Source of the DNA: a virus
Lineage: Duplodnaviria > Caudoviricetes
Length of the DNA: 63,967 bases
IMG/VR virus record: IMGVR_UViG_3300031718_000009
Coordinates: 1-63,967 of that record
Reading direction: 5' to 3' (one strand)
A model generated the notes under the pieces. The model was not told where the DNA came from. It made no database searches and worked only from the letters and a program-made list of their open reading frames with translations. A program made the translations under genes and the position numbers. Of this stretch, positions 2,761-47,547 are shown one piece after another (the stretch's first letter is position 1; the number at the start of each line of letters is the position of its first letter).

Positions 2761-2811
2761 CGGTTGGCACAACTATTTTGTGGGCAACTCAAAATAACCG
2801 CCATATTCGCG

Positions 2812-3327
2812 CTAATAGAGGCCGATCTGTGTGGCACGGAGGGGCTGTGGATGGCACACTTCCCAGACAAGAACCCCGCGCGCATTGAGGGACGCCGCCA
2901 CGATGCAGAGCGCCTTTTCGCGTTTGCGGAAAAACGTCCGCGGAGCCCAAAGCTTATCCGCACAAAGCCGCTTAATCGATCGACCTTGCGAGACACGTAG
3001 CGCCCAAAGACCTGTGACAAGCGCCATACCAGGGTCCTCTCGCCGAAGTTCGCTTAACCACTCGAACGCAGCTTCCATGTGCTTAATCTCCTCTCCGCTC
3101 GGCTGCGGCCGGCGCCCACGGTTTGCCGCCTCCTCGCGCATCTTGCGTTCGATCGGATCAATCCCAAGTTGATCACCCCACTCCGTCATCGTCGTTGGCC
3201 AATTTCCGCCAGGCGCGCGAGGACCGGCAGCCACAGGCATCATGGCCAGCGTGACGAACGCTTGAACGATTGCCTGCCCTACGCGCTCCGCATCCCACAT
3301 TTGCACAGCCTCAATGGTTGTCGCCAT
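2812..3327 (-). CDS. DUF6362-like putative late-gene regulator (Q-analogous position)
   Basis: W....V...AF.TL..MP, P..EI..ME....WL and a C-terminal HTH-like segment; directly upstream of the late leader. Confidence 0.6.
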   Translation of the reverse strand: MATTIEAVQMWDAERVGQAIVQAFVTLAMMPVAAGPRAPGGNWPTTMTEWGDQLGIDPIERKMREEAANRGRRPQPSGEEIKHMEAAFEWLSELRREDPGMALVTGLWALRVSQGRSIKRLCADKLWAPRTFFRKREKALCIVAASLNARGVLVWEVCHPQPLRATQIGLY

Positions 3328-3460
3328 CGTCCGATAAACCCAATTTTCTAAAAACCTCCCTAAGCGCATACCTCCATCCGCATTGAAGACCGGTCTCAAA
3401 CCCTGTCCAAAAACAAATGCAGCAAAAAATATACAGATCGATCCAGAACATCATCAGCAT
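3311..3460 (-). CDS. Small hydrophobic protein
   Basis: TGATG-coupled start; hydrophobic, Cys-rich N-terminus. Confidence 0.45.
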   Translation of the reverse strand: MLMMFWIDLYIFCCICFWTGFETGLQCGWRYALREVFRKLGLSDDGDNH

Positions 3461-3783
3461 CACCCATTGAGCCTGATGTCTCCAGGGTTTGCCACAAGCA
3501 GACCGGCCCGCTGTGCCTGGTACGCCGACTCTGCCTCTCGGCTCGGTGCGTTGGTCCATTGGATCAATCGCGTGTTGAGCATGATCGAGGTGCCGCTAAG
3601 GCACGGCGAGTCGCGCAAAAAGTTTCTAAACAGAATTGTTTTTGGCGGCGCGATTTGCAGAAAACACGGGTATTCGAATTTGATAAAAAACCCAAGTGGC
3701 GTGTCGGTGGTATCCCACGTCGTCTCGCCGATCAGGTCGATACCGCCAACCATCGTGAGGATGACCAGTTGTTTGGGTTTCAT
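3460..3783 (-). CDS. Hypothetical protein
   Basis: ORF track; coupled to both neighbours. Confidence 0.65.
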   Translation of the reverse strand: MKPKQLVILTMVGGIDLIGETTWDTTDTPLGFFIKFEYPCFLQIAPPKTILFRNFLRDSPCLSGTSIMLNTRLIQWTNAPSREAESAYQAQRAGLLVANPGDIRLNG

Positions 3784-4019
3784 TCCGCAATCTCCGGTAT
3801 GCCTGCACCGAGCTTCGCGCGCAGTTCTGGGGATAACGGCGGGAGGGGTTTGTCCCGGTACTTGGCGGCGAGAGCGGCTTCAATGTCGCGATCCGCTTCG
3901 GCATAAAGTTCGTCTCGATTTTTGTGCAACACCTTCTCGAAATCTCTACCGAGAGGTTGCATGCTGTTTGCCAATTCGCGGATTAGCGTGCTTACTGGTG
4001 CTCGATCGTTGGTTGTCAT
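3780..4019 (-). CDS. Hypothetical protein
   Basis: ORF track; ATGA-coupled. Confidence 0.65.
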   Translation of the reverse strand: MTTNDRAPVSTLIRELANSMQPLGRDFEKVLHKNRDELYAEADRDIEAALAAKYRDKPLPPLSPELRAKLGAGIPEIAE

Positions 4020-5819: not shown

Positions 5820-6208
5820 CTCAAAATGTCCTTGAGCCTGATCAGCGCGACGGTGAACCTGCCGCCGTCGCCAGCCCTATCTCGCCATTGTCCGGCGCGG
5901 ATCGCTTCGCGCGTAAGTTCCTTTAATCGCCAGACAGGAAACATCAAATAGACGAGCGTGCTGTCATCGCGTCGCAGCTCGTGAACCCATACGTCCGCTT
6001 CAGTCGTTGCGATCCCGGACGGCTCGCCGTTCTGCCGGTATTCGATGCAAATATTACCCGTCTGTTCCCATTGCCATGTCTCGCTTTTGAGCTCGATGCG
6101 CCCATTGCAAAGGATGCCCGCAAGCTCATGTTCGCGCAAACGCGCTTGGCTCAATTGAAGATCAAACTTGTTGTCACGATTGAATTCGATTGGTCCGCAC
6201 CCGCTCAT
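5816..6208 (-). CDS. Phage protein, possible PD-(D/E)XK-type nuclease fold
   Basis: IELK...TGNICIEY...PSGI.TTEAD.W motif. Confidence 0.55.
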
Positions 6209-7422
6209 GACAAAAGCATCCTGCTTAAAACATCGATTTCCTCGGCAAGCGCCTTGTCCTCGGCGACAAGCTTTTCGATCTTTCGCACGCCATGCAATAC
6301 CGTTGTGTGATCTCTACCGGCGAACCGCCGCGCAATGTCCGGCAGTGATCTCAGCGTCAACTGCTTTGAGAGATACATAGCGATCTGGCGCGGGCGCACC
6401 ACGCACGCGGTTCGCCGCGCGGATAAGATGTCGTCGCGGGTTACGTTGAAATGGCTCGCGACCATTTTCTGTATGGCCTCGATCCTGACCTTTTTCCGCT
6501 CTGGCTCGCACACAAGATCACAAATGGCGGACTCGGCGAGCTCCATTGTCACATGGCCTGGAGATTGGTAGTGATGATGCTCAGAATTTTTCACCGACGA
6601 ACACGCTACTAGACGGTTTACCGCTCCCACGAGATCGCGCCCGTTTGTCTGAATAACGCTCGCGATGTAGGCGATAACCTCGGCTGGAACCTCAAAAGTT
6701 TGATGCACCAGTTTGACGGCGGCTATGCGCGCTTCGAGAATTTTGACCCGTAAATCCGCATCTAGCGGACCGATTTCGATGCAGAGGCCGCCGGCAAAGC
6801 GCGAGCGGGTTCTTTCTTCGAGACTTTCGAGATCGCGCGGCGGGCAATCGGCCGCGACTATGATCTGCTTTTGAATGTCGTCGAAAAAGGCATTAAGCGC
6901 ATAACAAAACTCCTGTTGAATCGACTTGCCCTGAAGAAATTGAATGTCGTCGATCACGAGGACATCAACAGCACGTAGTCTTTCCTTGAACGCGCATGCC
7001 GTCTGTGCCTTGAGGGCTGACACGAACCCGTACATGAACCGATCCGCGGTCAAATAGAGGACTTGCCGGTTTGCGGCTGCGGCCTGCGCTACAGCTTGGA
7101 GAAGATGCGTTTTCCCCAACCCAACCGAGGCATGTAGATACAACGGATTGTAAATAGGCTTGATCGCACACGCCGCTCTGTTCGCCTCGACGTATGCCAC
7201 GCGGTTCGAGTCGCCGACATGGAAGCTCGTAAACGTCATGCGGGGATCGAGCGAAGAGCCGGTAATAGGCTCGACTGTCTTCTGTGGCGGTTTGACTGTC
7301 TTCTGTGGCGGCTGGATGGATTTCTTGGGCGGCGGCGGAAACCATGCCTCATGAATGCGATCATGCTCCGCGGCGATATGATCGAGCAGCGATGAACCCG
7401 TGTTGTGGCGAAGATCGGTCAT
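6205..7422 (-). CDS. dnaA: DnaA homologue with AAA+ domain III and DNA-binding domain IV; domain I absent
   Basis: [26 protein letters not shown] (Walker A), VLVIDDIQF (Walker B), RSRF, NGRDL, RQIAMYL and RDHTTVLH. Confidence 0.95.
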
Positions 7423-14639: not shown

Positions 14640-14968
14640 ACCGCGACGAACGCGACTGGACAACCCCAACCCTTACCGAAGTCCGCTCGCTTCGCCCGGC
14701 CGATCTCGCCAAGCGCTGGCAGTGCTCTGACCGCCACGTCCGCAACCTCGTGCGCGCAATGATCTTGCCAAGTTTCCGCGTCGGGGGCAAGCTGATACGA
14801 ATTCCTCTGGACGCCGTCGAGGCTTACGAGGGGCTAGCGCAAAGATGCAACCAAAGTTTCGGGCAGTCCTCTATCGCGGGCACTACTACGCCGCCTGGCG
14901 GGAAAACGGAACCATCCGCCGCAAAGCGCTTCGTACCCGCGATCGTGAGTGCGCCGAGCAAACGCTGA
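14636..14968 (+). CDS. xis: Excisionase (HTH_17/MerR-like)
   Basis: LRPADLAKRWQCSDRHVRNL...LPSFRVGGKLIRIP; GTG start with GGAG RBS; overlaps the integrase gene. Confidence 0.8.
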   Translation: MNRDERDWTTPTLTEVRSLRPADLAKRWQCSDRHVRNLVRAMILPSFRVGGKLIRIPLDAVEAYEGLAQRCNQSFGQSSIAGTTTPPGGKTEPSAAKRFVPAIVSAPSKR

Positions 14969-15882
14969 AATCTTTCGCCGAGCAGTACGAGATCGCCAAC
15001 CGGCCGCAGGTCATTACCGTGGAGTTTGTCTGGAATGGATACCGTGAAACGCTCGCTGGTCGTCCTGCCGGCAAAACAATGGAATTTGAGGCGCGAGCGC
15101 TGCTTCCATTCCTTGGCTCAATTCCTGCCGGCTCTATCACAGAGAGAGATTGCCGGGATTATCATGAGCGCAGAAAAGCTTCAGGACGCAAAGACGGAAC
15201 AATCTGGACAGAGCTCGGGCGACTGCGATCGGCGCTGAAATGGGCGGAAAGAAAAAACCTGATCGTCAAGGCCCCGGCGATTTATCGGCCGCCAGCGTCC
15301 CCGCCGCGGGATTTGCGCTTGACGCGGGAACAAGCTTCCAAGTTCATGTCCTCATGCGTGATGCCGCACGTCAGACTCTTCGTCATTCTCGCCATGACGA
15401 CCGGCGCGAGAGCTGGAGCCCTCCTCGGGTTGACGTGGGATCGCATCGACTTCGATGGGAAATTGATCGATTTAGCCGATCCGGCGCGCCCGAGGACTAA
15501 GAAAGGCCGGCCAATGGTGCCAATGAACCGCACGGCCGCCGCCGCCCTCCAGGAAGCCCGCGCGGGGGCGCTGACGCCCTTCGTGATCGAATGGGATGGG
15601 AAGCCGGTGCAGAGTGTGAAGAAGGCCCTAGCGGCCGCCGGGAAGCGCTGCGGGCTGCCTTGGGTGAGCGCGCATGTGTTCCGGCATTCCGCGGCGAGCT
15701 GGATGGCCGAGGCGGGGGTGAGCATGGACAGGATCGCGGCGTTTCTCGGCCATACCGACAGCCGGATTACCTCCCGCGTCTATGCTAAGTTTTCGCCCGA
15801 TTATCTGCGCGATGCGGCCGAGGCGCTGGAGATCGATCTATTGAAGGACGGCATTCGTGCTCCGCACAGAAACATTCGATGA
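14845..15882 (+). CDS. int: Tyrosine recombinase/integrase
   Basis: TGAR, HVFRH, LGH and VY catalytic motifs. Confidence 0.95.
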   Translation: MQPKFRAVLYRGHYYAAWRENGTIRRKALRTRDRECAEQTLKSFAEQYEIANRPQVITVEFVWNGYRETLAGRPAGKTMEFEARALLPFLGSIPAGSITERDCRDYHERRKASGRKDGTIWTELGRLRSALKWAERKNLIVKAPAIYRPPASPPRDLRLTREQASKFMSSCVMPHVRLFVILAMTTGARAGALLGLTWDRIDFDGKLIDLADPARPRTKKGRPMVPMNRTAAAALQEARAGALTPFVIEWDGKPVQSVKKALAAAGKRCGLPWVSAHVFRHSAASWMAEAGVSMDRIAAFLGHTDSRITSRVYAKFSPDYLRDAAEALEIDLLKDGIRAPHRNIR

Positions 15883-22422: not shown

Positions 22423-25400
22423 TTATCTCGCTTGCTGGAAATTCGCGCCTGCTTTGATCAGCGCCTCGAAGACAGCCGTAGCTCTGTCTGGTGGCGCGAG
22501 CGCACGCATTACGCTGCCGCGCTTGATGAATTCGTCGCGGTCGAGCGCTTCGAGGACACCAGGATCGAGGAAGTATTTTCCGCCGATCTGTCGCGCGCCA
22601 GCGATAGAAATAAGAAAGCCACCCGATGGGTGGCCTGTGATCGTGATCGCGCCGTCCGCGGATTCCGCGGTGCCCCCAGGTTTTTCCAGGTATTTGATGA
22701 TTTCTCTCGGCTCTCGAAGTTTTTTGACGGCCCCGGCGACAACTTCCTTGTGCGATGTCTGCGCGCGAGGAGCCATAAGCCCCTGTCGAACGGTGCCATC
22801 ATCCATCGTGAAGTGTGCGATTTGCCCGACCTTGTGAAGTAGATCGTATGCCGCGAGCAAATTCCCCGTGGCGATCACCCGCTTTTCGCGAAGCTCGGAC
22901 TTGAAGCTGTCGAACAGCTTGGCGATTTCTGTGGCACTCGTCTTCGATGGATTGACGTGCATCGCGTTCGCCTCGCCGGTCTCTCCAGTCGTCAACTGCG
23001 AGAAAGGAACAGTCCTTGTGCCATAGCCAGGCATCGCGAGCACCGCGGACCAACTCGACGCGGCGTAGGGATTGATCGTCTTGCCTTCATGTTTTACCCC
23101 AACGACAAGCGCATCCGGCAAGGGCGTCTCATGGTTATTGGTGTGCAGGATGGCGCCAGGAAAGACAACGGCCAACTTGTCTCTCATGGCCTCCCTGCCG
23201 TCCGCCAATCGATTAGCTTGCTCTGCCGCTACCTCCGGGTCTTTGGTAATCGCCGTCATCGCGCTCTTGTATTCGTTGAACGCCTGATCGGCGCGGGTCA
23301 TCATCGCGGTATTGGCCTTCCCGCCAGCCGTTTGGAGCGCTTCGAGCGGCGCGAATTTTGGCACGATTTCTCGTCCCAGCATCGCATAAGCGGATTTCAT
23401 CACGTCATCGAATTTCGGCGGCTTGCGGGCGCTCTTGACGTCATACGTACCGACATGCACGGCGGCTTGGAACGGGCTATCGCCAGTCTTTGGAGAGATG
23501 TCCGCGCCGCCCTCGTACTTGGCCTGGAGATCAAGATGTTTGGCCTCAAGCGCATTTTCCCCGCGCTCGTCGAGATCGTCGATCTTGGCTTTGTATTGGC
23601 TCTCGATCGCGTCGTATATCCGTTCTTGGTCTTGCGGGTCTAGCAATGCGATGCGTCCGGTCGTCTTACGCGCGGCGTCTTCGTCCGGGTCTTTCGGATC
23701 AAGCGACTCTAGCGGCTCGCCAAGGTCGATATGAGCGCGCATGTCATCGAGCATAACCTGCGTCACCACTTCATCGCCGTAGTGGTTCAGGAAATCGACC
23801 GCGCCCTTGCCGGAAAGGCCGCTTTTCGCGTCCGCCGTCGTATTGGCGTTTAGGGAGGAAAGTTTCTTGGCGAGCACCGCCATCGGCCGCTTTTCCGCCG
23901 GTACATCGGCACCAAGATGGGCATAGCGCGGCTTGGACACTTGACCTGTGCGCAGGACACGACCGAGCATTTGCATATGAACAGTGATGTTCGGATGCGC
24001 CTGAGCGATGATCATGGCCCGCTGGCCGCGGCCGCTTTCCGGGAATGCCTCGCTATCGTGAAGCGAGATGCCGGTCGCACCGCTTTCGTTTAGAATGAGC
24101 GCTTTCAGTTTCCCGGAATTGAAATCTTTGACCGTCTGGGTGCGGCCCGCAACGGATTTTTCTTTTGGCGATCTGACCCCGATCCGCGGGATATTGCCCT
24201 TCCCGTAATCGAGCGTGTTGTTGCGGCCGGTGATTTCTGAAACGGAATGACCTGCTTGCGAAATCACCTGCCGTATTTTGTCGATCGGCGAGATCGGAAG
24301 CTTGCCGAAATCAAGCCCGTTGATGATGGCTTGCGCCTGATGATACGCGGCCAACCCCTCCGGTCCTAGCTCTTCGTCGGTCATCGTGTGTTTGTCTTCG
24401 ACGGCGCCGAATGGTTTTTTGATCGTGACGACGCGCGATCGATCGAGATAGCGCGAGAGAAGATCGCCGAAGTTCGCTCTGATGAGGTCGCCGGTCTTTG
24501 CGCCGGTCTGCTTCATGTAGTCAGAGACGAAGCTTTCCAGCGTGTTTGCGACGGCGATTACCGGGCGCTCGCCCCTGTTGATCGCCTCGACCGCAAGCTG
24601 CCCTGCGCGTTCCGCCTTCGAGGCGAGGAGGAATTGCGCAACGACGTTGTGCATGAGGGAGGTAAAATTCGTGCTTTCGGCCCCGGCCGTCCCAACCGAG
24701 GCATCTTGCCCGGCAATCGCGGCCTCGGCCTTGACTTGTTTGTCAATGTCCTTGACGGATTTGCCAGCTTTCTTTGAGAATTCATTAATCGCCCGCAACG
24801 CCCGCGAAAAGCCGGCATAGAGCTCGCGATCGATCGGCGTCACTTCCATATCGTATTTGATGCCGTCGAAAGACCGCTCGCGGCGAAGATACTGGCCGCT
24901 CTCGGCAAGCGCGGACGCAACAACTTGCTGCATCGGCACGCCGCCCTTTTTGATCGCCTCGCCGAGGTCCTTCATATCTGAGACGGCGTAGCGCATGTCG
25001 GTCTTGGAATAGAGCCGCATACTGTCCGGCCGCTTGGCATAGGTCGCCGAGGAATACGCAACGGCCTTGGCCTTTTGGACAAGCTCGCGGGCGAACTCGG
25101 CGCGATCTGCAGGGGGCGGGAGCTTGCCCTTTGCAATGCGCTTCTCGACGGCCGCACCGCCGGCATTATGGCTCTCGTCGAAAAGAATGATCGAGTTCGG
25201 CGCCATGCTCCGCAGAAAGTCCCGCCGCGCCGTATTCTGACCTTTGACCGTTTGCATTTGCGAGTAAGTGGTCATGATCATGTCGTGATCAAGCAGCCTA
25301 GCGCCGACGCGGTTGCTGCCCTGTTGGTTCCCGGTCGCCGCGATGTCGCGGAGTTGTTTCTCCTGCTCTGGGCCGTCCGGCGTTTTCAGAATTGTTCCTT

Positions 25401-28400
25401 GATCGCCGACCGGCAGCTTCAAGTTGCTATTGGTGGGCAGAATGCGCGGCTCGCGACCAAGCATGTCCGTCATCCCAATGTCCGTCATATCGTCGAACAT
25501 GGCGGCGTACAGATTGGGTTTCTCCGTGACGAAAATAGGCGTCATCCCGTTACGGATGCCGTAACGAAGGAGACCGGCAAGAACGCGGCCCTTGCCGATG
25601 CCGGTTTGATCGCCGAGGATCAACGAGGCGCCACGCTCGATGTTGTCGATCGCGAGTCCGAGCGCATCGACCTGCTCGGCGGAATAGTGCTTGCCGAGAT
25701 CGGCGGCTTTGTAGCCAAGCTCGCTTGCAACATATTTGGCGATCGGACCGTGACGACTTTCGACGCGGGCGAGAGCGGCGTCCGAGGCGTCGCGCATGTT
25801 CCGCGGCGCGAGCGTGCCGAGTTTCATGCCGGACGTAGATTTCGGGCTATAGGCTACCTGATTTTCGGTTTCGGCTTCTTTCGGGGCCTCGGGTTGTGCT
25901 GGTGCGGCAGGAGCAGCCCGCGGCTGGCGTGGTTCCGGCTTGAGAACGAAATGAACCTCGTCGTCACCCCACGGGGCCGCGCTACGATTGCGCACGTCCG
26001 AAGGAAGCCCTTCCGGCATATCCAGACGGCCAAGGTTTATCTCGCGCGCTTTGCCAGCCTGTACGAGCCTTTCCTTGAAGCTCGCGAGCGTGCCGGCGTC
26101 TGGATATTTGCGCCCGTAGGCATCATAGACTTGGGAGATCGCGACGCGCGTAGGGAACGGCGGCGTTTCGAGCTTATAGGCCACGTCCTTGACGCGATCG
26201 GCGAAGCTTGGCTCCGGCGTGCTTACTCCAGGTGGCCGTCGTTCGGCAGCACGCGGAGCGCCATGTCCTCCGGGTCCTCCGCGCACAGGACGTTCGGCAG
26301 GTTCAGGTGCGGCAGGTGGTTCTCGATGCTCATGTTGTTGAGGAACATTTGTTGGCCGAAGTGCTCCGGGTTCGACTTCGGGTCGATGTTCGGTTCCAGC
26401 ATTCCCGCGTCCGACATCGATCGGTTTATCCGCCTGATCATGTCCGGGCGTTCCGACTGCGGGACTCGGTGCATTAACGTCTGCGCTCGCGCCGCTAACT
26501 GGCTGCGGATGGCTTGGTTGCTGGGCAACGGCTTTCTCCTTTACTTCGCCCCACGTCTTTAAAATGGGGGGCGCGGTCATCATCGGGTAGGGGAGCGCGG
26601 ATTTCCCGGCCCCGGAAATCGTGATTACATCGACCGGCCAGCCGGCGCCCTGCTTCTCGTAGAGGTCGCCCGCGACGGTGAAATGCCCATCGACATTGAA
26701 CTTGTCATAGAGTGTCTTAAAAAACTCGCGCTTGGTCTTCGATCCGTATGCCTTTGTTCTCGCTTCGTCGGACTTCGCCAACGGCGACGGCCCACCGAGG
26801 ATCAGGACGGCCCGCCCGTCCGGCTTCATCGCGGCAAGCGAGTTCAGCGCGATAGCATGATCGATCTCGCCAGTCTCATAGCCAGGCTGGAAACGCGATA
26901 GGTCAAAACGGTCCCCTGCACCACCTTCGCCGTGACGCACTCCAAAAGGAGGGTTAGCAAGTACAATATCGAACGGACCATCGTTTTGCTTGACCGCCGC
27001 TTCGGCTGTTGCAGGTTTCGAGGCATCTCCGGTCATAGCAAAGAAGCCCTGTGACTTCAATGCGTTTATCCGTCCTCGGTTCAATTCGTTGGCAACAGTA
27101 TCGACGGCGTGCGCCTCAATCAAGAGCGCGCCGTTGCCCGCGGACGGCTCGTAGACTGTCTTGTCCGGCGCGACGCCAGCGAGCCTCGAAGCGGCATAGG
27201 CGAGCGGGATCGGCGTCGAATAAGCCTGGTCGCGCATCGAGGACGAGGTTCGCGTTCCAAGCTTCGGCTGGTCGGCGTAGAGCTTGACGAGCCGGTCGAA
27301 AGTGTCCGCCGGATCGGCGCCGTGGATATTGACGATCTGGCGCGCGGCCTTGACGACGCCTAACTCGACATTTTCCTCGAACGCCTTGAGCTGGTTTGGG
27401 TCCTTGAGATCGTGGCCCGTGACCTTGGCGGCATTCTCGCGCGAGAGCGGGACACTCGCCAGAAGGTGCATTGCGATTTTATCGGCCGGCGTATGGACAG
27501 GTTCGCTCTGGCCGCTCGCGAGGACCAAGCGGCCGGTTTCGAGCGCGTTCTGGGTAGCGGCGGCAAGCGCAGCACTGTCCGCCATCCAGGGTTTTTTGAC
27601 CTGGGCTGATTGTGGCGGCTTTGTGGCTTCTCGTTCATTTAACGAGACTGGCGTGTGAGATAGAAATCCACCCTGATTTCTAACTTTTTCGGCATTCTCG
27701 CGCGCCTCTCGGTCCTTTAGCGCCTGCGGCGTCGCTTGATAGGCACCTACGCTTGGTGCCGCTTCCGGTGCGCCAGGAGCAGGGCTTTTGCCCAGCGCTG
27801 GTAGCGCAACTGGTCCGGTCCTCGCGACAGGCGGGCGAGGCTCTGGAGGCGCCTGAGCAAGGTTTTGTATTGGCTCGGGGGCAGCGGGGAGTTGTTCGCC
27901 ATCTTGGATGCCCTGAACTTTCGGATCGGCGAGCGCCGCCTCGATGACAGCGTGCTCGTACGCTTCGTCCGGCGCCATTCCTGAAGCTTGGTGCTGTTTG
28001 GCGGCGGCCGCGGCCGGCGGATCGATGTCGATCGGACGAAGGCCGAGGGGCGGCGCAATTCCCCGCACAATTTCTGGCGTTGATATTGCTGGCTTTTCGG
28101 CTAATTGCGCGGACGGCGCGGAATTCGGCGCATTTCCTGGCGCAATTGGCTCGAAGCCTTCCGGCAGCGTACCTGACGGTTTGGCAAACGGCTTCTTGGC
28201 CTGCCCGCTCGCCAGCCATGTTTTGAGCTGGTCGATCGGGACTTCGGTAATTCCACCGATACGCTGCGGTGCGGAGCCGTCCGGGAAGGCCGCATCGTAG
28301 ATGCGCGTAGCCTCAGTTACGTTATCGACGCCTGCGACGATCTTGTGCTCGTCAAATTTTCCCGTCGCCGGGTCGTTCTGGTCGATAACGAATGCTTTTC

Positions 28401-29538
28401 CGTTCGGCCCTTTGTCGCCGAGGAAAATATCGACCTGATCGCCATCCTTACCGACTGAGCCCTTCAGATACCCGTAGTCCGCCGGGAGCACGGAGCTCCA
28501 TGGGGCGCCGGTCGGATCGACGCCTGACCGGATCGAGCCCTTGGGATTTTCGATCGTGACGGGGAGCCCGTCATAATTCACATGGCCTTTCTGGTAATTC
28601 CCGGCTTCGGCTTGCGGCGGTGTTGGCGCGGTGTCTACGACGTTGCGCGCGGGCTCGATGTCTTCCGGCGCGGCGATCTTGGCCGGGGTTTGGCGAGTTC
28701 CGGTCTGAGCCTCCGCATTCGGCGGTTGAACTGCTTCTTGGACTTCTGGCGGTTGTGGCGGGGCATTCGCAGCGGCCTGTGGCGGCGCGATCTGCACCGG
28801 GGGACCGCCAGCTTCTTTGTTTTTTATGAACTGGTCAATCTCTGCGCGTGTCTTTGCCCCAGCCGCGCGCGCTGAGGCGATATCCGCCTCGTTCAAGAAA
28901 CGTTCTACATCGGTTCCTTGGATGTCCGTTGGTTGTCCAACCGCTGTGGACAATTTCCCAGCGGCATGTCCAGTCGCCAATTGAGCGGCGAGCTGTGCCG
29001 CGGTCTTAAATCCCTCCGGCGCCGCCTCTGCGGCTGCCCCGCCGGCGCCGCCCGCCGCAGCGCCGATCGCAGCCGTCGTTGCCGTTGGCGCGCCGGTGAT
29101 CGCCTGTGTCGTTTCTAGGGCCGGTCCAGCGAGCGTTCCGGCCTTGCCGAGCAGCCCAACGGCAGTTGCCGGTAGGGTAGCGGCCGCGGCGCCATAACCG
29201 GTCGCATGGGCGATCTTCTCGGCCGTCGTCGCGTCTGGTGCGAGATCAGGGTTGATGCCGACCTGACGCTCAATCTCTCGCAACCACGCCGAGCCCATGA
29301 TGGGCGCCGGGTTGGTTTGCAGACCAACTCCGCGCAATGCCGTGTTGGCGATATCGACCGGAAGCCCGGCTATTCCCGCAATGGCGGCGTTAGGACCGGC
29401 TGCCGCGGCACCGAGCAGCCCGCGCGCCGTGGTTTGGCGGGGCGGCGGCGGGTAGAGTTTGTCATCGACGTATTCAAAGTCGGGAGGGAGAGGATGTTGA
29501 GGCGGCGGCGCAAATTCGGCGAAGAAATTGGCGCTCAT
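22423..29538 (-). CDS. DarB-like polyvalent virion protein, 2,371 aa: inorganic-pyrophosphatase-like domain, N6-adenine MTase and Strawberry-notch SF2 helicase
   Basis: GNYQKGH..IENPKGS.R..DYGY..DGDQVD; QAYSTP, YEPSAGNG and NPPF; GDQTGIGKGR, FDESHN, YSSATYAK, GISLH and QMLGRV.RTGQ. The ATG at 29538 is ATGA-coupled. Confidence 0.9.
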   Translation of the reverse strand: MSANFFAEFAPPPQHPLPPDFEYVDDKLYPPPPRQTTARGLLGAAAAGPNAAIAGIAGLPVDIANTALRGVGLQTNPAPIMGSAWLREIERQVGINPDLAPDATTAEKIAHATGYGAAAATLPATAVGLLGKAGTLAGPALETTQAITGAPTATTAAIGAAAGGAGGAAAEAAPEGFKTAAQLAAQLATGHAAGKLSTAVGQPTDIQGTDVERFLNEADIASARAAGAKTRAEIDQFIKNKEAGGPPVQIAPPQAAANAPPQPPEVQEAVQPPNAEAQTGTRQTPAKIAAPEDIEPARNVVDTAPTPPQAEAGNYQKGHVNYDGLPVTIENPKGSIRSGVDPTGAPWSSVLPADYGYLKGSVGKDGDQVDIFLGDKGPNGKAFVIDQNDPATGKFDEHKIVAGVDNVTEATRIYDAAFPDGSAPQRIGGITEVPIDQLKTWLASGQAKKPFAKPSGTLPEGFEPIAPGNAPNSAPSAQLAEKPAISTPEIVRGIAPPLGLRPIDIDPPAAAAAKQHQASGMAPDEAYEHAVIEAALADPKVQGIQDGEQLPAAPEPIQNLAQAPPEPRPPVARTGPVALPALGKSPAPGAPEAAPSVGAYQATPQALKDREARENAEKVRNQGGFLSHTPVSLNEREATKPPQSAQVKKPWMADSAALAAATQNALETGRLVLASGQSEPVHTPADKIAMHLLASVPLSRENAAKVTGHDLKDPNQLKAFEENVELGVVKAARQIVNIHGADPADTFDRLVKLYADQPKLGTRTSSSMRDQAYSTPIPLAYAASRLAGVAPDKTVYEPSAGNGALLIEAHAVDTVANELNRGRINALKSQGFFAMTGDASKPATAEAAVKQNDGPFDIVLANPPFGVRHGEGGAGDRFDLSRFQPGYETGEIDHAIALNSLAAMKPDGRAVLILGGPSPLAKSDEARTKAYGSKTKREFFKTLYDKFNVDGHFTVAGDLYEKQGAGWPVDVITISGAGKSALPYPMMTAPPILKTWGEVKEKAVAQQPSHPQPVSGASADVNAPSPAVGTPGHDQADKPIDVGRGNAGTEHRPEVEPGALRPTNVPQQHEHREPPAAPEPAERPVRGGPGGHGAPRAAERRPPGVSTPEPSFADRVKDVAYKLETPPFPTRVAISQVYDAYGRKYPDAGTLASFKERLVQAGKAREINLGRLDMPEGLPSDVRNRSAAPWGDDEVHFVLKPEPRQPRAAPAAPAQPEAPKEAETENQVAYSPKSTSGMKLGTLAPRNMRDASDAALARVESRHGPIAKYVASELGYKAADLGKHYSAEQVDALGLAIDNIERGASLILGDQTGIGKGRVLAGLLRYGIRNGMTPIFVTEKPNLYAAMFDDMTDIGMTDMLGREPRILPTNSNLKLPVGDQGTILKTPDGPEQEKQLRDIAATGNQQGSNRVGARLLDHDMIMTTYSQMQTVKGQNTARRDFLRSMAPNSIILFDESHNAGGAAVEKRIAKGKLPPPADRAEFARELVQKAKAVAYSSATYAKRPDSMRLYSKTDMRYAVSDMKDLGEAIKKGGVPMQQVVASALAESGQYLRRERSFDGIKYDMEVTPIDRELYAGFSRALRAINEFSKKAGKSVKDIDKQVKAEAAIAGQDASVGTAGAESTNFTSLMHNVVAQFLLASKAERAGQLAVEAINRGERPVIAVANTLESFVSDYMKQTGAKTGDLIRANFGDLLSRYLDRSRVVTIKKPFGAVEDKHTMTDEELGPEGLAAYHQAQAIINGLDFGKLPISPIDKIRQVISQAGHSVSEITGRNNTLDYGKGNIPRIGVRSPKEKSVAGRTQTVKDFNSGKLKALILNESGATGISLHDSEAFPESGRGQRAMIIAQAHPNITVHMQMLGRVLRTGQVSKPRYAHLGADVPAEKRPMAVLAKKLSSLNANTTADAKSGLSGKGAVDFLNHYGDEVVTQVMLDDMRAHIDLGEPLESLDPKDPDEDAARKTTGRIALLDPQDQERIYDAIESQYKAKIDDLDERGENALEAKHLDLQAKYEGGADISPKTGDSPFQAAVHVGTYDVKSARKPPKFDDVMKSAYAMLGREIVPKFAPLEALQTAGGKANTAMMTRADQAFNEYKSAMTAITKDPEVAAEQANRLADGREAMRDKLAVVFPGAILHTNNHETPLPDALVVGVKHEGKTINPYAASSWSAVLAMPGYGTRTVPFSQLTTGETGEANAMHVNPSKTSATEIAKLFDSFKSELREKRVIATGNLLAAYDLLHKVGQIAHFTMDDGTVRQGLMAPRAQTSHKEVVAGAVKKLREPREIIKYLEKPGGTAESADGAITITGHPSGGFLISIAGARQIGGKYFLDPGVLEALDRDEFIKRGSVMRALAPPDRATAVFEALIKAGANFQQAR

Positions 29539-29732
29539 CGCTGGCGCACCATCCAACACCACCAAGTCGGCGGGGGCTTCCAATCCGGGATTGAATAATC
29601 TATCATGCCAGGATCAACCCAGACCTCTGTCATCCCTAGAGCCGCCTTTATCCAATGGATTATTAACGCGACAAATAGAACACAATTGATGAAAACCAGA
29701 CAACGAAACAACAGACCATATTTATTCATCAT
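29535..29732 (-). CDS. Small membrane protein
   Basis: Hydrophobic N-terminal half; coupled to the giant gene. Confidence 0.5.
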   Translation of the reverse strand: MMNKYGLLFRCLVFINCVLFVALIIHWIKAALGMTEVWVDPGMIDYSIPDWKPPPTWWCWMVRQR

Positions 29733-45760: not shown

Positions 45761-46195
45761 CTACGTCGCGCTGTCCCACATCACGATCTTCGCGTTCGCC
45801 GCGTCGGGGTGCGCAATGCCGAATCCGCCCAAGTAATACCAAGCGACGCCGCGACTTCTTCCGTAGTCGTCCGGGATTTTGGCGCGTATCTCCTCGGGGA
45901 GCGCAATAGCTTCGGTCACTGTGTCGGCGCCGAATAGGAATGCCCAACTAGACTGTCCGTTCGCCCATGGGTCGGATACTTGCGCGTACGGATCGAATAG
46001 CACGGAAGCATCGGAACCGCCAGCCGGGATGAACGTCTGTTCAATAAAGCGGGTGTTTTCGTAACGGCCGATCTCGCCGGAGAAGATTTCGGCGATACCA
46101 AGGACCGTATACTGCTTGATGCCTTCGAGGGTGTTCTTGAACGGCCGGTAGGTCGTCGGCCGCGAGATCATCATATAGTCGTCGTCTTTGAAAGG
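45761..46195 (-). CDS. Major capsid protein, exon 2 (144 aa)
   Basis: PFKDDDYMMISRP...GEIGRYEN.RF.E...DYGR..GVAWYY; N4-gp56-like MCP C-terminal half. Confidence 0.9.
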   Translation of the reverse strand, partial: PFKDDDYMMISRPTTYRPFKNTLEGIKQYTVLGIAEIFSGEIGRYENTRFIEQTFIPAGGSDASVLFDPYAQVSDPWANGQSSWAFLFGADTVTEAIALPEEIRAKIPDDYGRSRGVAWYYLGGFGIAHPDAANAKIVMWDSAT

Positions 46196-46989
46196 CTTAG
46201 TGTTCGCTCTGGTTCGCTACACCAGAACCGCCATTTGGCCGCTGCAACTTTCATTGCAGAACAGACTATATCTTGCTCCGTTATCCACAGAGACTGAGCG
46301 CTTCGGGCCGCTTGGCCCTACTCCCTTACGGGATAGTCGTTGAACGTTATCGAAGGATATGAAAGAGTGTAACCGTATCCCCCTTTCATGCGGTGAAACA
46401 TGAGACGACAACATCACTTCGCCACCCCAATGACGCCCTTTAGCGACATCGAAGCGGCTTACATCGCTGGAGTAATTGATAGCGATGGATGCATCCATTT
46501 CGAAAGAGCACGCCGTAAGAACGGCGGCTTCCGCTACAGGATCATCGTTGCCGTCGATATGTGCGATCTGCCTACTATGGAGCACATTTCCAAAACCACT
46601 GGAGGGCGTCTCGTCACAAAACGCTCTCTGCGCGGGTCGCTAACCAAACGACCATTCATTTATCGTCTCACTTGGCGGAACGGCCCTGCCGAAGATTTTC
46701 TTCGGAGGATTCTTCCGTTCCTGCACAACAAGAAACGGCAGGCAGAGCTTGGTATTGAATTCCAAAACCAAGTTGCAAAGCCCCTTGGAGTGAAATTCAC
46801 TGCTGATGATTTCACCATTTGCGAGCGCTTCTATTTAGAAATGAAAGCGCTCAACAATCCTTCCGATCTTCGCTGCTGATTGCCCAATCCTGCCAGTTTT
46901 CAAACCGTCGCGTTTATCCTCGCGGATTCCGCTGTGGTTGGCAGGCTCTAAGGGGTTTCCAGACAATTCACTCAGTGTACCCAAACTTT
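46196..46989 (-). ncRNA. Group I self-splicing intron, 794 nt, in the major capsid gene
   Basis: 5' exon ends in U with a P1 U-G pair (UACCU/GGGUA). Core elements P AAUUGUCUGGAAA, Q AAUCAGCAG, R GUUCAACGACUA and S AAGAUAUAGUCU are present, with a terminal G. Splicing restores the frame. Confidence 0.93.
46400..46879 (+). CDS. Single-motif LAGLIDADG homing endonuclease, antisense within the intron
   Basis: AAYIAGVIDSDGCI...ILPFL..KK.QA...F. Confidence 0.9.
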   Translation: MRRQHHFATPMTPFSDIEAAYIAGVIDSDGCIHFERARRKNGGFRYRIIVAVDMCDLPTMEHISKTTGGRLVTKRSLRGSLTKRPFIYRLTWRNGPAEDFLRRILPFLHNKKRQAELGIEFQNQVAKPLGVKFTADDFTICERFYLEMKALNNPSDLRC

Positions 46990-47547
46990 AGGTATGTTTT
47001 GCTCCTTCATATAGTCCGAAAGAGCTTTGATATGCCCTGTATTCAAGCCAACGTTGTTGGTGATCGCTGTTGAGCCGGTCGTTGAGACCGTTACTGACGT
47101 GAGGGACGTTCCGCCGGTCGGTGCAGCTCGAAGCGGGGTCTGCTTGAACTGCAAGAAGGCGACGATGTCGAAGAATTTCCTGGCGTCGTTCTTCAGCGTC
47201 TGATTGATGATCGCCATGATGTCGTGTTTGGCGAGGTCCATCAGCTTGCCGGTGAAGGGAACGGAGATACCGGCTTCGGTGATCGTCAGCGTCCGCTGAA
47301 GGATCGTAAAGCCGCCTTCCGGCATGGCTTGGCGCTCGTCGAGCTGGCGCCCTTGAGTGCCAATATTCGTATAAACGTTCCAGTGAAAGAGATCACCGCG
47401 GTTTAGACCTTTCTGTTCTCCGTCTGGAGCGTCGCAAAACTGTCTAAACTTGGTTAGCGGTTGAGTAACGGTCCGCATATAGTCGGAAAGTTCGTCCGAA
47501 TACGCGAAGCCGCCCTCGCTTGAGACCGTCCAGATTTGTCCGGCCAT
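46990..47547 (-). CDS. Major capsid protein, exon 1 (186 aa; spliced product 330 aa)
   Basis: KFRQFCD, G..FHWN, TITEAG.SVPFT; follows the scaffold gene. Confidence 0.9.

Follow-up and report, generated by a model that had tools for sequence, protein, structure and literature searches.

A major capsid gene split in two lies on the minus strand (45,761 to 47,547) of the complete 63,967-bp genome of an uncultured soil phage (IMG/VR record IMGVR_UViG_3300031718_000009, rated complete and bearing direct terminal repeats), the whole of which constitutes the window analyzed here. The DNA between the two coding segments is very probably a mobile IA-type group I intron that interrupts the gene between codons 186 and 187 and that carries, in antisense orientation, a gene for an I-CreI-like endonuclease. 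An initial annotation of this DNA had proposed a group I intron in the capsid gene, and this proposal is sustained by an Rfam match, by covariation, by an intron-less sister phage, by contiguous homologs, and by the U at position −1 together with the terminal G of the insert. That account did not mention the LAGLIDADG homing-endonuclease gene lying on the opposite strand within P6, which is the most unusual part of the element. From these comparisons we infer splicing of the capsid transcript, the activity and target of the endonuclease, and the mode and timing of expression of the antisense gene.

Read on the minus strand, capsid exon 1 (46,990 to 47,547; 558 nt, 186 codons) runs from 47,547 to AAC ATA CCT at 46,990, where the protein reads KEQNIP and the last base is U. 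The 794-nt insert (46,196 to 46,989) begins with AAAGTTTGGGTAC at 46,989 and ends with CACTAAG at 46,196. Exon 2 (45,761 to 46,195; 435 nt, or 144 codons plus a stop) opens with CCT TTC AAA at 46,195 and begins PFKDDDY. The splice junctions that had been annotated initially are borne out at these positions, and the lengths of 186 and 144 codons agree with the 330-amino acid major capsid protein that was proposed to result from exon joining. The expected ligated junction is AACAUACCU followed directly by CCUUUCAAA. Without splicing, the exon-1 frame meets a stop five codons into the insert.

Each half of the gene was compared by tblastn with 50,697 phage records, which yielded matches in 32 records for exon 1 (residues 1–186) and 35 for exon 2 (residues 2–144), the same genes being recovered. 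The matches are in Vibrio and Escherichia phages, to which exon 2 adds two Bacillus phages and one unclassified phage record, and the two halves are adjacent and in frame in the matched phages. In Vibrio phage D279 (OZ195853.1), for example, exon 1 residues 1–186 correspond to 5935–6486 and exon 2 residues 2–144 to 6490–6885. We also compared the protein encoded by the joined exons with 106 capsid loci by tblastn, the IMG/VR portion of this survey comprising the best 80 of 476 stretches. A single alignment extending from residue 1 to about residue 330 was obtained for 85 of the 106 loci. The initial annotation would have been refuted by intron-less homologs that failed to align across the junction; the alignment was gapless at NIP-PFK in all 85 (a hyphen within a protein motif marks the insertion point). 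The insert falls within MKE(R/Q)NIPP of the motif MKE(R/Q)NIPP(Y/F)xxDDY, and this motif appears, from the aligned proteins, to be the best-conserved block of the capsid family.

The closest relative, a 62,352-bp IMG/VR contig designated L003, encodes a capsid protein that is 98% identical over residues 59–330 and that reads KEANIP PFKDDDY, the insert being absent at exactly this codon. The two capsid coding sequences differ by 127 mismatches in 993 nt (87% DNA identity), and because the proteins are nearly identical despite these differences, both split genes are evidently under purifying selection. When the mismatches were examined for signs of co-conversion, eight were seen to cluster in coding-sequence nucleotides 541–570, just 5′ of the insertion site, and other bins are equally high. 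The intron sites are reciprocal, with each phage carrying an intron where the other is empty: L003 has a different group I intron after codon 58 (L003:3232–4000; Rfam 17.4 bits, E 0.74), which contains a sense-strand LAGLIDADG gene of 189 amino acids (3350–3919) at a site that is uninterrupted in the present phage. Separately, L003 has a 36-nt in-frame insert in capsid exon 1 (3127–3162), between the R35 and Q36 codons, with a TAA stop at its start, AGGAA inside, and ATG at its end. This insert, which the present phage lacks, may reflect a splitting of the gene by stop and restart, a bypass site, or faulty assembly.

The identity of the interrupted gene is indicated by several profile and annotation matches. 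Exon 2 matches phrog_1357 (E 3.3e-6), exon 1 has a weak TIGR04387 match, and the full-length homolog L004, which is 73% identical, matches the phrog_1357 major head protein profile at E 2.7e-15 over positions 32–339 of 356. Homologs in Vibrio phage 1.232.O and in Escherichia phage PTXU04 are annotated as major capsid proteins, the latter with a TIGR04387 note. Phage capsid proteins, among them those of cyanophage P-SCSP1u (1.3e-4), Ralstonia phage GP4, and N4, predominate in the 30 top Foldseek hits listed from the Protein Data Bank for an AlphaFold model of L004, and a few encapsulin-type cages are present as well. Their template modeling scores range from 0.19 to 0.40, and these model-based hits would lend weak support to the capsid assignment.

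Evidence that the insert is a group I intron begins with the Rfam model RF00028, which aligns over its whole length (model positions 1–253) to 47,030 through 46,242 on the minus strand (33.2 bits; E 3.3e-6 for the region and 1.1e-4 for the whole genome). No second group I match occurs in the genome, and the sole other Rfam match at E values up to 0.1 is a chance-level mir-363. The helices of the core were located by duplex folding, by the Rfam alignment, and by folding of alignments. P1 (46,978 to 46,994) is formed by exon UACCU (46,994–46,990) and the internal guide GGGUA (46,982–46,978), and the U at 46,990 pairs with the G at 46,982 to give a U·G wobble at the 5′ splice site. The final exon-1 U and the intron-terminal G are present in all four aligned introns and also in loci L109 and L112. 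Related introns in three other loci use other P1 exon and guide sequences (CAUCCCU/GGGGAUG in L038, GAGCGU/GCGCUC in L048, and UGCGU/GCGCA in L087). These pairs differ yet always match, and therefore the exon strand and guide co-vary.

The P3 given in the initial annotation, ACTGAGTG with CGCTCAGT (46,976–46,969 with 46,300–46,293), proved to be the best duplex in that region at −12.1 kcal/mol. The P4–P5 domain (46,862 to 46,970, comprising P4, P5, and P5a–c) was obtained by folding an alignment of eight related capsid-gene introns, in which 15 of 26 predicted pairs show compensatory changes. P6 (46,349 to 46,867) is a 10-bp stem with one bulge, formed by 46,867–46,857 with 46,358–46,349 according to duplex folding. 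The P7 domain (46,264 to 46,338; 46,338–46,334 with 46,268–46,264), which was placed by the Rfam alignment and by alignment folding, contains P7.1 (46,333–46,322), P7.2 (46,318–46,305), the 3′ strand of P3 (46,300–46,293), and P8 (46,292–46,276). The 3′ portion (46,196 to 46,259) consists of the P9 hairpin with a GAAA loop (46,259–46,242, where the Rfam alignment ends), two more hairpins, and the terminal G at 46,196. An alignment of four introns gave 39 pairs for the 3′ domain, 12 of them compensatory (including a U-A to C-G change in P7 of L038), and five of seven P9 pairs have compensatory changes.

In per-helix duplex checks, all four introns formed P1, P3, P6, P7, and P8 from differing sequences, and the sequences of the P6 stem and of P8 differ in every one of the four while the pairing is always kept. 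The conserved P3–P8 core, with the guanosine site in P7, is thus backed by covariation. RNAalifold applied to a four-sequence MAFFT alignment from which insert columns had been removed recovered the structure in part, and this result was superseded by the domain-wise alignment folding and duplex checks. In the Michel–Westhof classification, the presence of P7.1 and P7.2 between P7 and the 3′ strand of P3 is a criterion for subgroup IA. Because both hairpins are conserved in all four aligned introns, we place the intron in this subgroup.

Two further comparisons concern the distribution of the ribozyme sequence. A covariance model of the P4–P5 domain, termed R1, which detects only this intron type and which includes the present intron (106 bits) among its training sequences, matched only this intron and interrupted capsid genes, with no uninterrupted locus recovered among the 99 sources searched. 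Using blastn, intron nucleotides ~11–122 (5′ part) and ~634–789 (3′ part) were found to resemble sequences in 307 phage records, in many of which the similarity lies in or beside genes for DNA polymerase, ribonucleotide reductase, primase/helicase, or HNH proteins. In phage nepoznato (L107; MN850571.1), both parts occur within 223 nt (143326–143548) between two unnamed coding sequences, which suggests a relative lacking an open reading frame (ORF). This unannotated sequence is ~220–340 nt long, and the two "hypothetical protein" coding sequences that flank it are probably one split gene.

The P6 stem closes a loop of 498 nt that holds an ORF on the plus strand (46,400 to 46,879). Its predicted product is a single-motif LAGLIDADG homing endonuclease of 159 amino acids, or 149 from the second ATG, at which the gene callers start it, and it matches phrog_5046 at E 7.4e-21. 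The motif IAGVIDSDG occupies residues 22–30, and A23, G24, D27, and G30 are invariant in two alignments. A profile built from six LAGLIDADG proteins of capsid-gene introns matches I-MsoI (9.7e-21) and I-CvuI and I-CreI (~1e-9) over nearly their full length. Because of these profile matches and the single motif, the protein is presumably a homodimeric enzyme like I-CreI and I-MsoI.

The position of this gene relative to the ribozyme is conserved. Intact homologs that are 30–67% identical share the same antisense position, among them those of L048 (39% identity) and L087 (30% identity). The last six codons of the ORF (ending DLRC) and its TGA stop (46,857–46,879) are the complement of the P4 3′ and P6 5′ strands, and three of four homologs also end in RC, which indicates a dual constraint on the stretch where the end of the ORF and the ribozyme coincide. 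A search for related loci with the single endonuclease protein as query gave no distinct locus, and the profile search gave 80 loci. In each of the seven closest of these (L108–L114, representing about four distinct phages), the R1 domain is found on the strand opposite the ORF and directly adjoins the 3′ end of the ORF; of the remaining 73, a single locus has an R1 match, and there it is on the same strand. An additional feature of L087 is a 284-amino acid open frame in the capsid sense (2790–3644) that spans the whole antisense endonuclease gene; nothing comparable occurs in the present phage.

Related introns were found at several other positions in homologous capsid genes. Among loci L004–L106 (n = 103), the capsid gene is uninterrupted in 84, cut by contig ends or only partly matched in 11, and interrupted in eight, one of which (L006) is the same contig as L003. 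In the codon numbering of the present gene, the insertions lie at ~52–58 (L003, L028, L038, and L102), at ~93–96 (L028, L038, L072, and L105), at 183 (L048 and L087), at 186 (the present phage, L038, L109, and L112), at 191 (L038), and at ~287–305 (L072, L102, and L105). Rfam searches of seven interrupted loci returned 10 group I matches in six of them, with eight of the 10 at or above the gathering score. The capsid proteins of L109/L110 and L112–L114 are ~50% identical to that described here, and their genes have related introns exactly at NIP-P or NIP-A. Clear homologs of the present intron are located 9 nt upstream, after codon 183 (MKER-NIPP), in L048 (2752–3491) and L087 (2769–3491). Their internal guide is changed to match, and they exemplify an insertion site that has shifted within a single lineage of introns. 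In L087, intron nucleotides 1–11 are nearly a repeat of the beginning of exon 2.

Locus L038 (254–2159) has four insertions in a single capsid gene, after codons ~56, 93, 186, and 191, three of which match Rfam group I models at 53 bits or more. The second insertion (662 nt, with a sense-strand LAGLIDADG ORF) gave no Rfam match at E values up to 1. A 15-nt micro-exon (1893–1907) that encodes PYTAD is located between the third and fourth insertions, and the closest intron-less relative has PFTAD. All 11 intron ORFs that were scanned match endonuclease families; six are antisense (four LAGLIDADG and two HNH) and five are sense. The antisense HNH genes, encoding ~250 amino acids, are found in insertions near codon 96 of L072 (2242–3230) and L105 (2165–3224), and they are situated 5′ to the ribozyme core, the Rfam match to which falls in roughly the final 300 nt.

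Several observations weigh against reading the insert as a functional, mobile intron in a capsid gene. The RF00028 score does not reach the gathering score of 50 bits, and Rfam at gathering thresholds returns zero matches in the whole genome, the intron appearing only at E-value thresholds. Thus, the covariance-model check that had been suggested initially gave a match to the full model but one below the cut-off. No P2 hairpin was found between P1 and P3, and the best duplex for P10 reaches only −1.9 kcal/mol; the P10 originally proposed (AAAG/CTTT) can form, but it is weak, is without support from relatives, and is not established. The endonuclease ORF scores 18.7 bits against Pfam PF00961 (LAGLIDADG_1), below the cut-off of 23.1, whereas its L048 homolog is above it at 27.7 bits. 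A promoter and terminator scan, with a sigma-70-like consensus, detected no promoter upstream of the antisense ORF, the number of sites being as expected by chance, and the sole plus-strand promoter-like site is at 46,938–46,967, downstream of the ORF. By eye, TTGAAC (the complement of J6/7) followed by a good −10-like hexamer was seen in L112 only and not in the present phage, L048, L087, or L109. L004 matches TIGR04387 (N4-gp56 family) at E 1.7e-13 but with 50.6 bits, under the curated cut-off of 60, and exon 1 alone scores 16.6 bits. We therefore consider the product a related HK97-fold capsid protein rather than an equivalog. The AlphaFold model of L004 is poor (mean predicted local distance difference test score of 58.5). 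Finally, the stretch was found in two soil-metagenome DNA runs and in no RNA run. The contigs of these two DNA runs show no joints, a result that is neutral as to splicing and to intron-less alleles in the population.

Some of these points would be expected if the insert were a decayed remnant that no longer splices, leaving the capsid gene broken and the phage defective. The subthreshold Rfam score, the weak P10 with P2 absent, and the restriction of the sequence to DNA runs all fit such a remnant. Nevertheless, the core helices and the J8/7–P7 consensus are all intact and co-vary with those of relatives, and the low score is accounted for by the 518-nt insert that the RF00028 alignment holds in P6, since the ORF-less intron at the same codon in L038 reaches 69.7 bits. 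Moreover, the exons are intact, with protein identity to L003 (98%) exceeding DNA identity (87%) as expected for purifying selection on the split gene, and the record is rated complete with terminal repeats. We consequently assign the remnant explanation only a slight probability.

It is less probable still that the endonuclease gene is a free-standing cassette and that the capsid protein is made as two separately translated polypeptides with no RNA splicing. T4-like phages are known to have genes whose two halves are separated by an endonuclease gene, and the stop, AGGAA, and ATG in exon 1 of the L003 capsid gene resemble such a split. The present exon 2, however, opens at CCT (Pro) in the capsid frame, and the first listed in-frame start is an ATG at 46,174 (a 137-amino acid ORF), seven codons into exon 2. 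The sequences on either side of the endonuclease ORF also form a full group I core, and versions without the ORF exist at the same codon. An assembly artefact, with intron DNA of other origin fused to a capsid gene in a chimeric contig, must be considered because the record is a metagenome assembly. The whole stretch is present in a single contig of one of the two soil DNA runs with zero differences, although that run may be the source of the record, and the other run leaves the intron uncovered. Since the same layout recurs in independent contigs of other samples (L048, L087, L109, and L112), an artefact is hardly credible.

Under the favored interpretation of a mobile, splicing group I intron, the late transcript of the minus strand would fold into the ribozyme, and P1 would present the U·G pair at 46,990 for attack by an external guanosine. 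The terminal G at 46,196 would then dock, and ligation of the exons would yield a 330-amino acid N4-gp56-like (HK97-fold) capsid protein. Since the most abundant virion protein would be made only after RNA splicing, the ribozyme must be very efficient. The P6 loop would represent extra cargo for the ribozyme, with its other strand encoding the putative I-CreI-like homodimeric LAGLIDADG endonuclease, which would be produced from a plus-strand transcript of its own. This enzyme would cut intron-less capsid alleles of related phages, and repair would copy the intron into them (homing).

We consider it possible, though rather doubtful, that the backward orientation of the endonuclease gene is a conserved design rather than an accident, one that would free expression of the endonuclease from that of the late capsid operon. 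If the proposal were correct, the endonuclease could be made early or from a silent prophage as a weapon against superinfecting intron-less relatives, and its mRNA, being antisense to the capsid pre-mRNA over P4–P6, could hold back splicing and production of the capsid protein until late transcription prevails. A parallel to such a weapon would be the endonuclease of a phage PhiPA3 intron, which is reported to interfere with a competitor (PMC11620839).

The surrounding genome is that of a tailed phage in which the minus strand carries most of the genes for terminase, portal, tail-fibre, and lysis proteins, with the portal gene and a scaffold-like gene directly upstream of the capsid gene. A repressor-like regulator and a tyrosine integrase (14,845 to 15,882; phrog_1, E 8.5e-56) are encoded on the plus strand. 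Because of the integrase, a temperate life style is plausible, as the initial annotation had it. For the alphaproteobacterial host given there, the only indication is the labels of two metagenome-assembled genome (MAG) contigs, Rhizobiales (74% identity) and Rhodoblastus (70%), which contain the closest capsid homologs in genome assemblies. This host assignment is weak, as both contigs have roughly the length of a phage genome and their place among the bacteria named in the labels may be no more than a product of binning. A tRNA scan of the whole genome found none. On the minus strand, a giant ORF of 2,386 amino acids (22,423–29,583), whose residues ~260–470 match endolysin, DarB-like antirestriction, and virion structural protein families, probably encodes an ejected or internal virion protein.

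The family context is more informative than the single case. In uncultured phages of soil and water, a single IA-type intron lineage has come to occupy six or more positions in one capsid gene, and its members contain a LAGLIDADG or HNH gene, in sense or antisense orientation, or have no gene. Natural intron-plus/intron-minus pairs, such as the present phage and L003, are suited to studies of homing and of site shift (codon 183 versus 186), as well as to the study of ORFs whose complementary strand encodes part of a ribozyme core. Since such capsid genes come out of gene calling as two separate "hypothetical" ORFs, recognition of the family should improve annotation and capsid-based classification. 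Of moderate interest are the conservation of the layout with an antisense LAGLIDADG gene and the fact that one capsid gene has been invaded repeatedly. Neither this family of introns nor a phage intron with a LAGLIDADG gene in antisense was the subject of any paper returned by a literature search that covered few subscription journals.

Several known systems share parts of this arrangement. The td intron of phage T4 is a group IA2 intron with the I-TevI ORF in its P6 loop and homes into intron-less alleles. The present element resembles it in its IA-type core with P7.1 and P7.2, in the location of its endonuclease ORF in the P6 loop, and in its proposed homing. It differs in that the T4 enzyme, I-TevI, belongs to the GIY-YIG class and is read from the sense strand, and in that the T4 host gene functions in nucleotide metabolism rather than in the virion. 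Staphylococcus phage Twort reportedly has three group I introns in orf142, comparable to the multiple introns in one phage gene of L038; the present phage has a single intron, and the gene and host group differ. The enzymes I-CreI, I-MsoI, and I-CvuI (PDB 1g9y, 1m5x, and 5a74) likewise possess a single LAGLIDADG motif in ~150–170 amino acids, but they are encoded on the sense strand of algal chloroplast ribosomal RNA introns and have low sequence identity to the present protein. An endonuclease ORF antisense to its host group I intron is described for I-DirII from ribosomal DNA of Didymium iridis, where the ORF needs its own promoter (PMC3073962). That case is eukaryotic and nuclear, with a ribosomal RNA host gene and, as described there, an RNA polymerase II promoter, a spliceosomal intron, and a poly(A) tail.

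The closest published parallel is the capsid gene of the temperate mycobacteriophage LittleE, which contains an 819-bp intron whose splicing was demonstrated by reverse transcription-PCR and N-terminal sequencing (Pope et al. 2013, PMC3706429). The two elements are alike in comprising an intron of ~0.8 kb (819 bp versus 794 nt) in the major capsid gene of a temperate phage, in the U that closes exon 1 and the G that closes the intron, and in having an endonuclease gene (gene 14 in LittleE) oriented opposite to the capsid gene. They differ in that the LittleE enzyme is called HNH rather than LAGLIDADG, that its intron is termed "most likely group I" whereas the core described here was assigned by Rfam and covariation, and that the LittleE host is an actinobacterium. 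Splicing, moreover, is demonstrated in LittleE but inferred for the present phage. A capsid-gene intron in lactococcal phage Tuc2009 is also cited there. The novelty that was initially claimed for splicing-dependent capsid synthesis, on the grounds that phage introns lie mostly in DNA-metabolism genes, was thus overstated. The element is a selfish element of a kind already known from published capsid-gene introns, that of LittleE having an oppositely transcribed endonuclease gene (PMC3706429).

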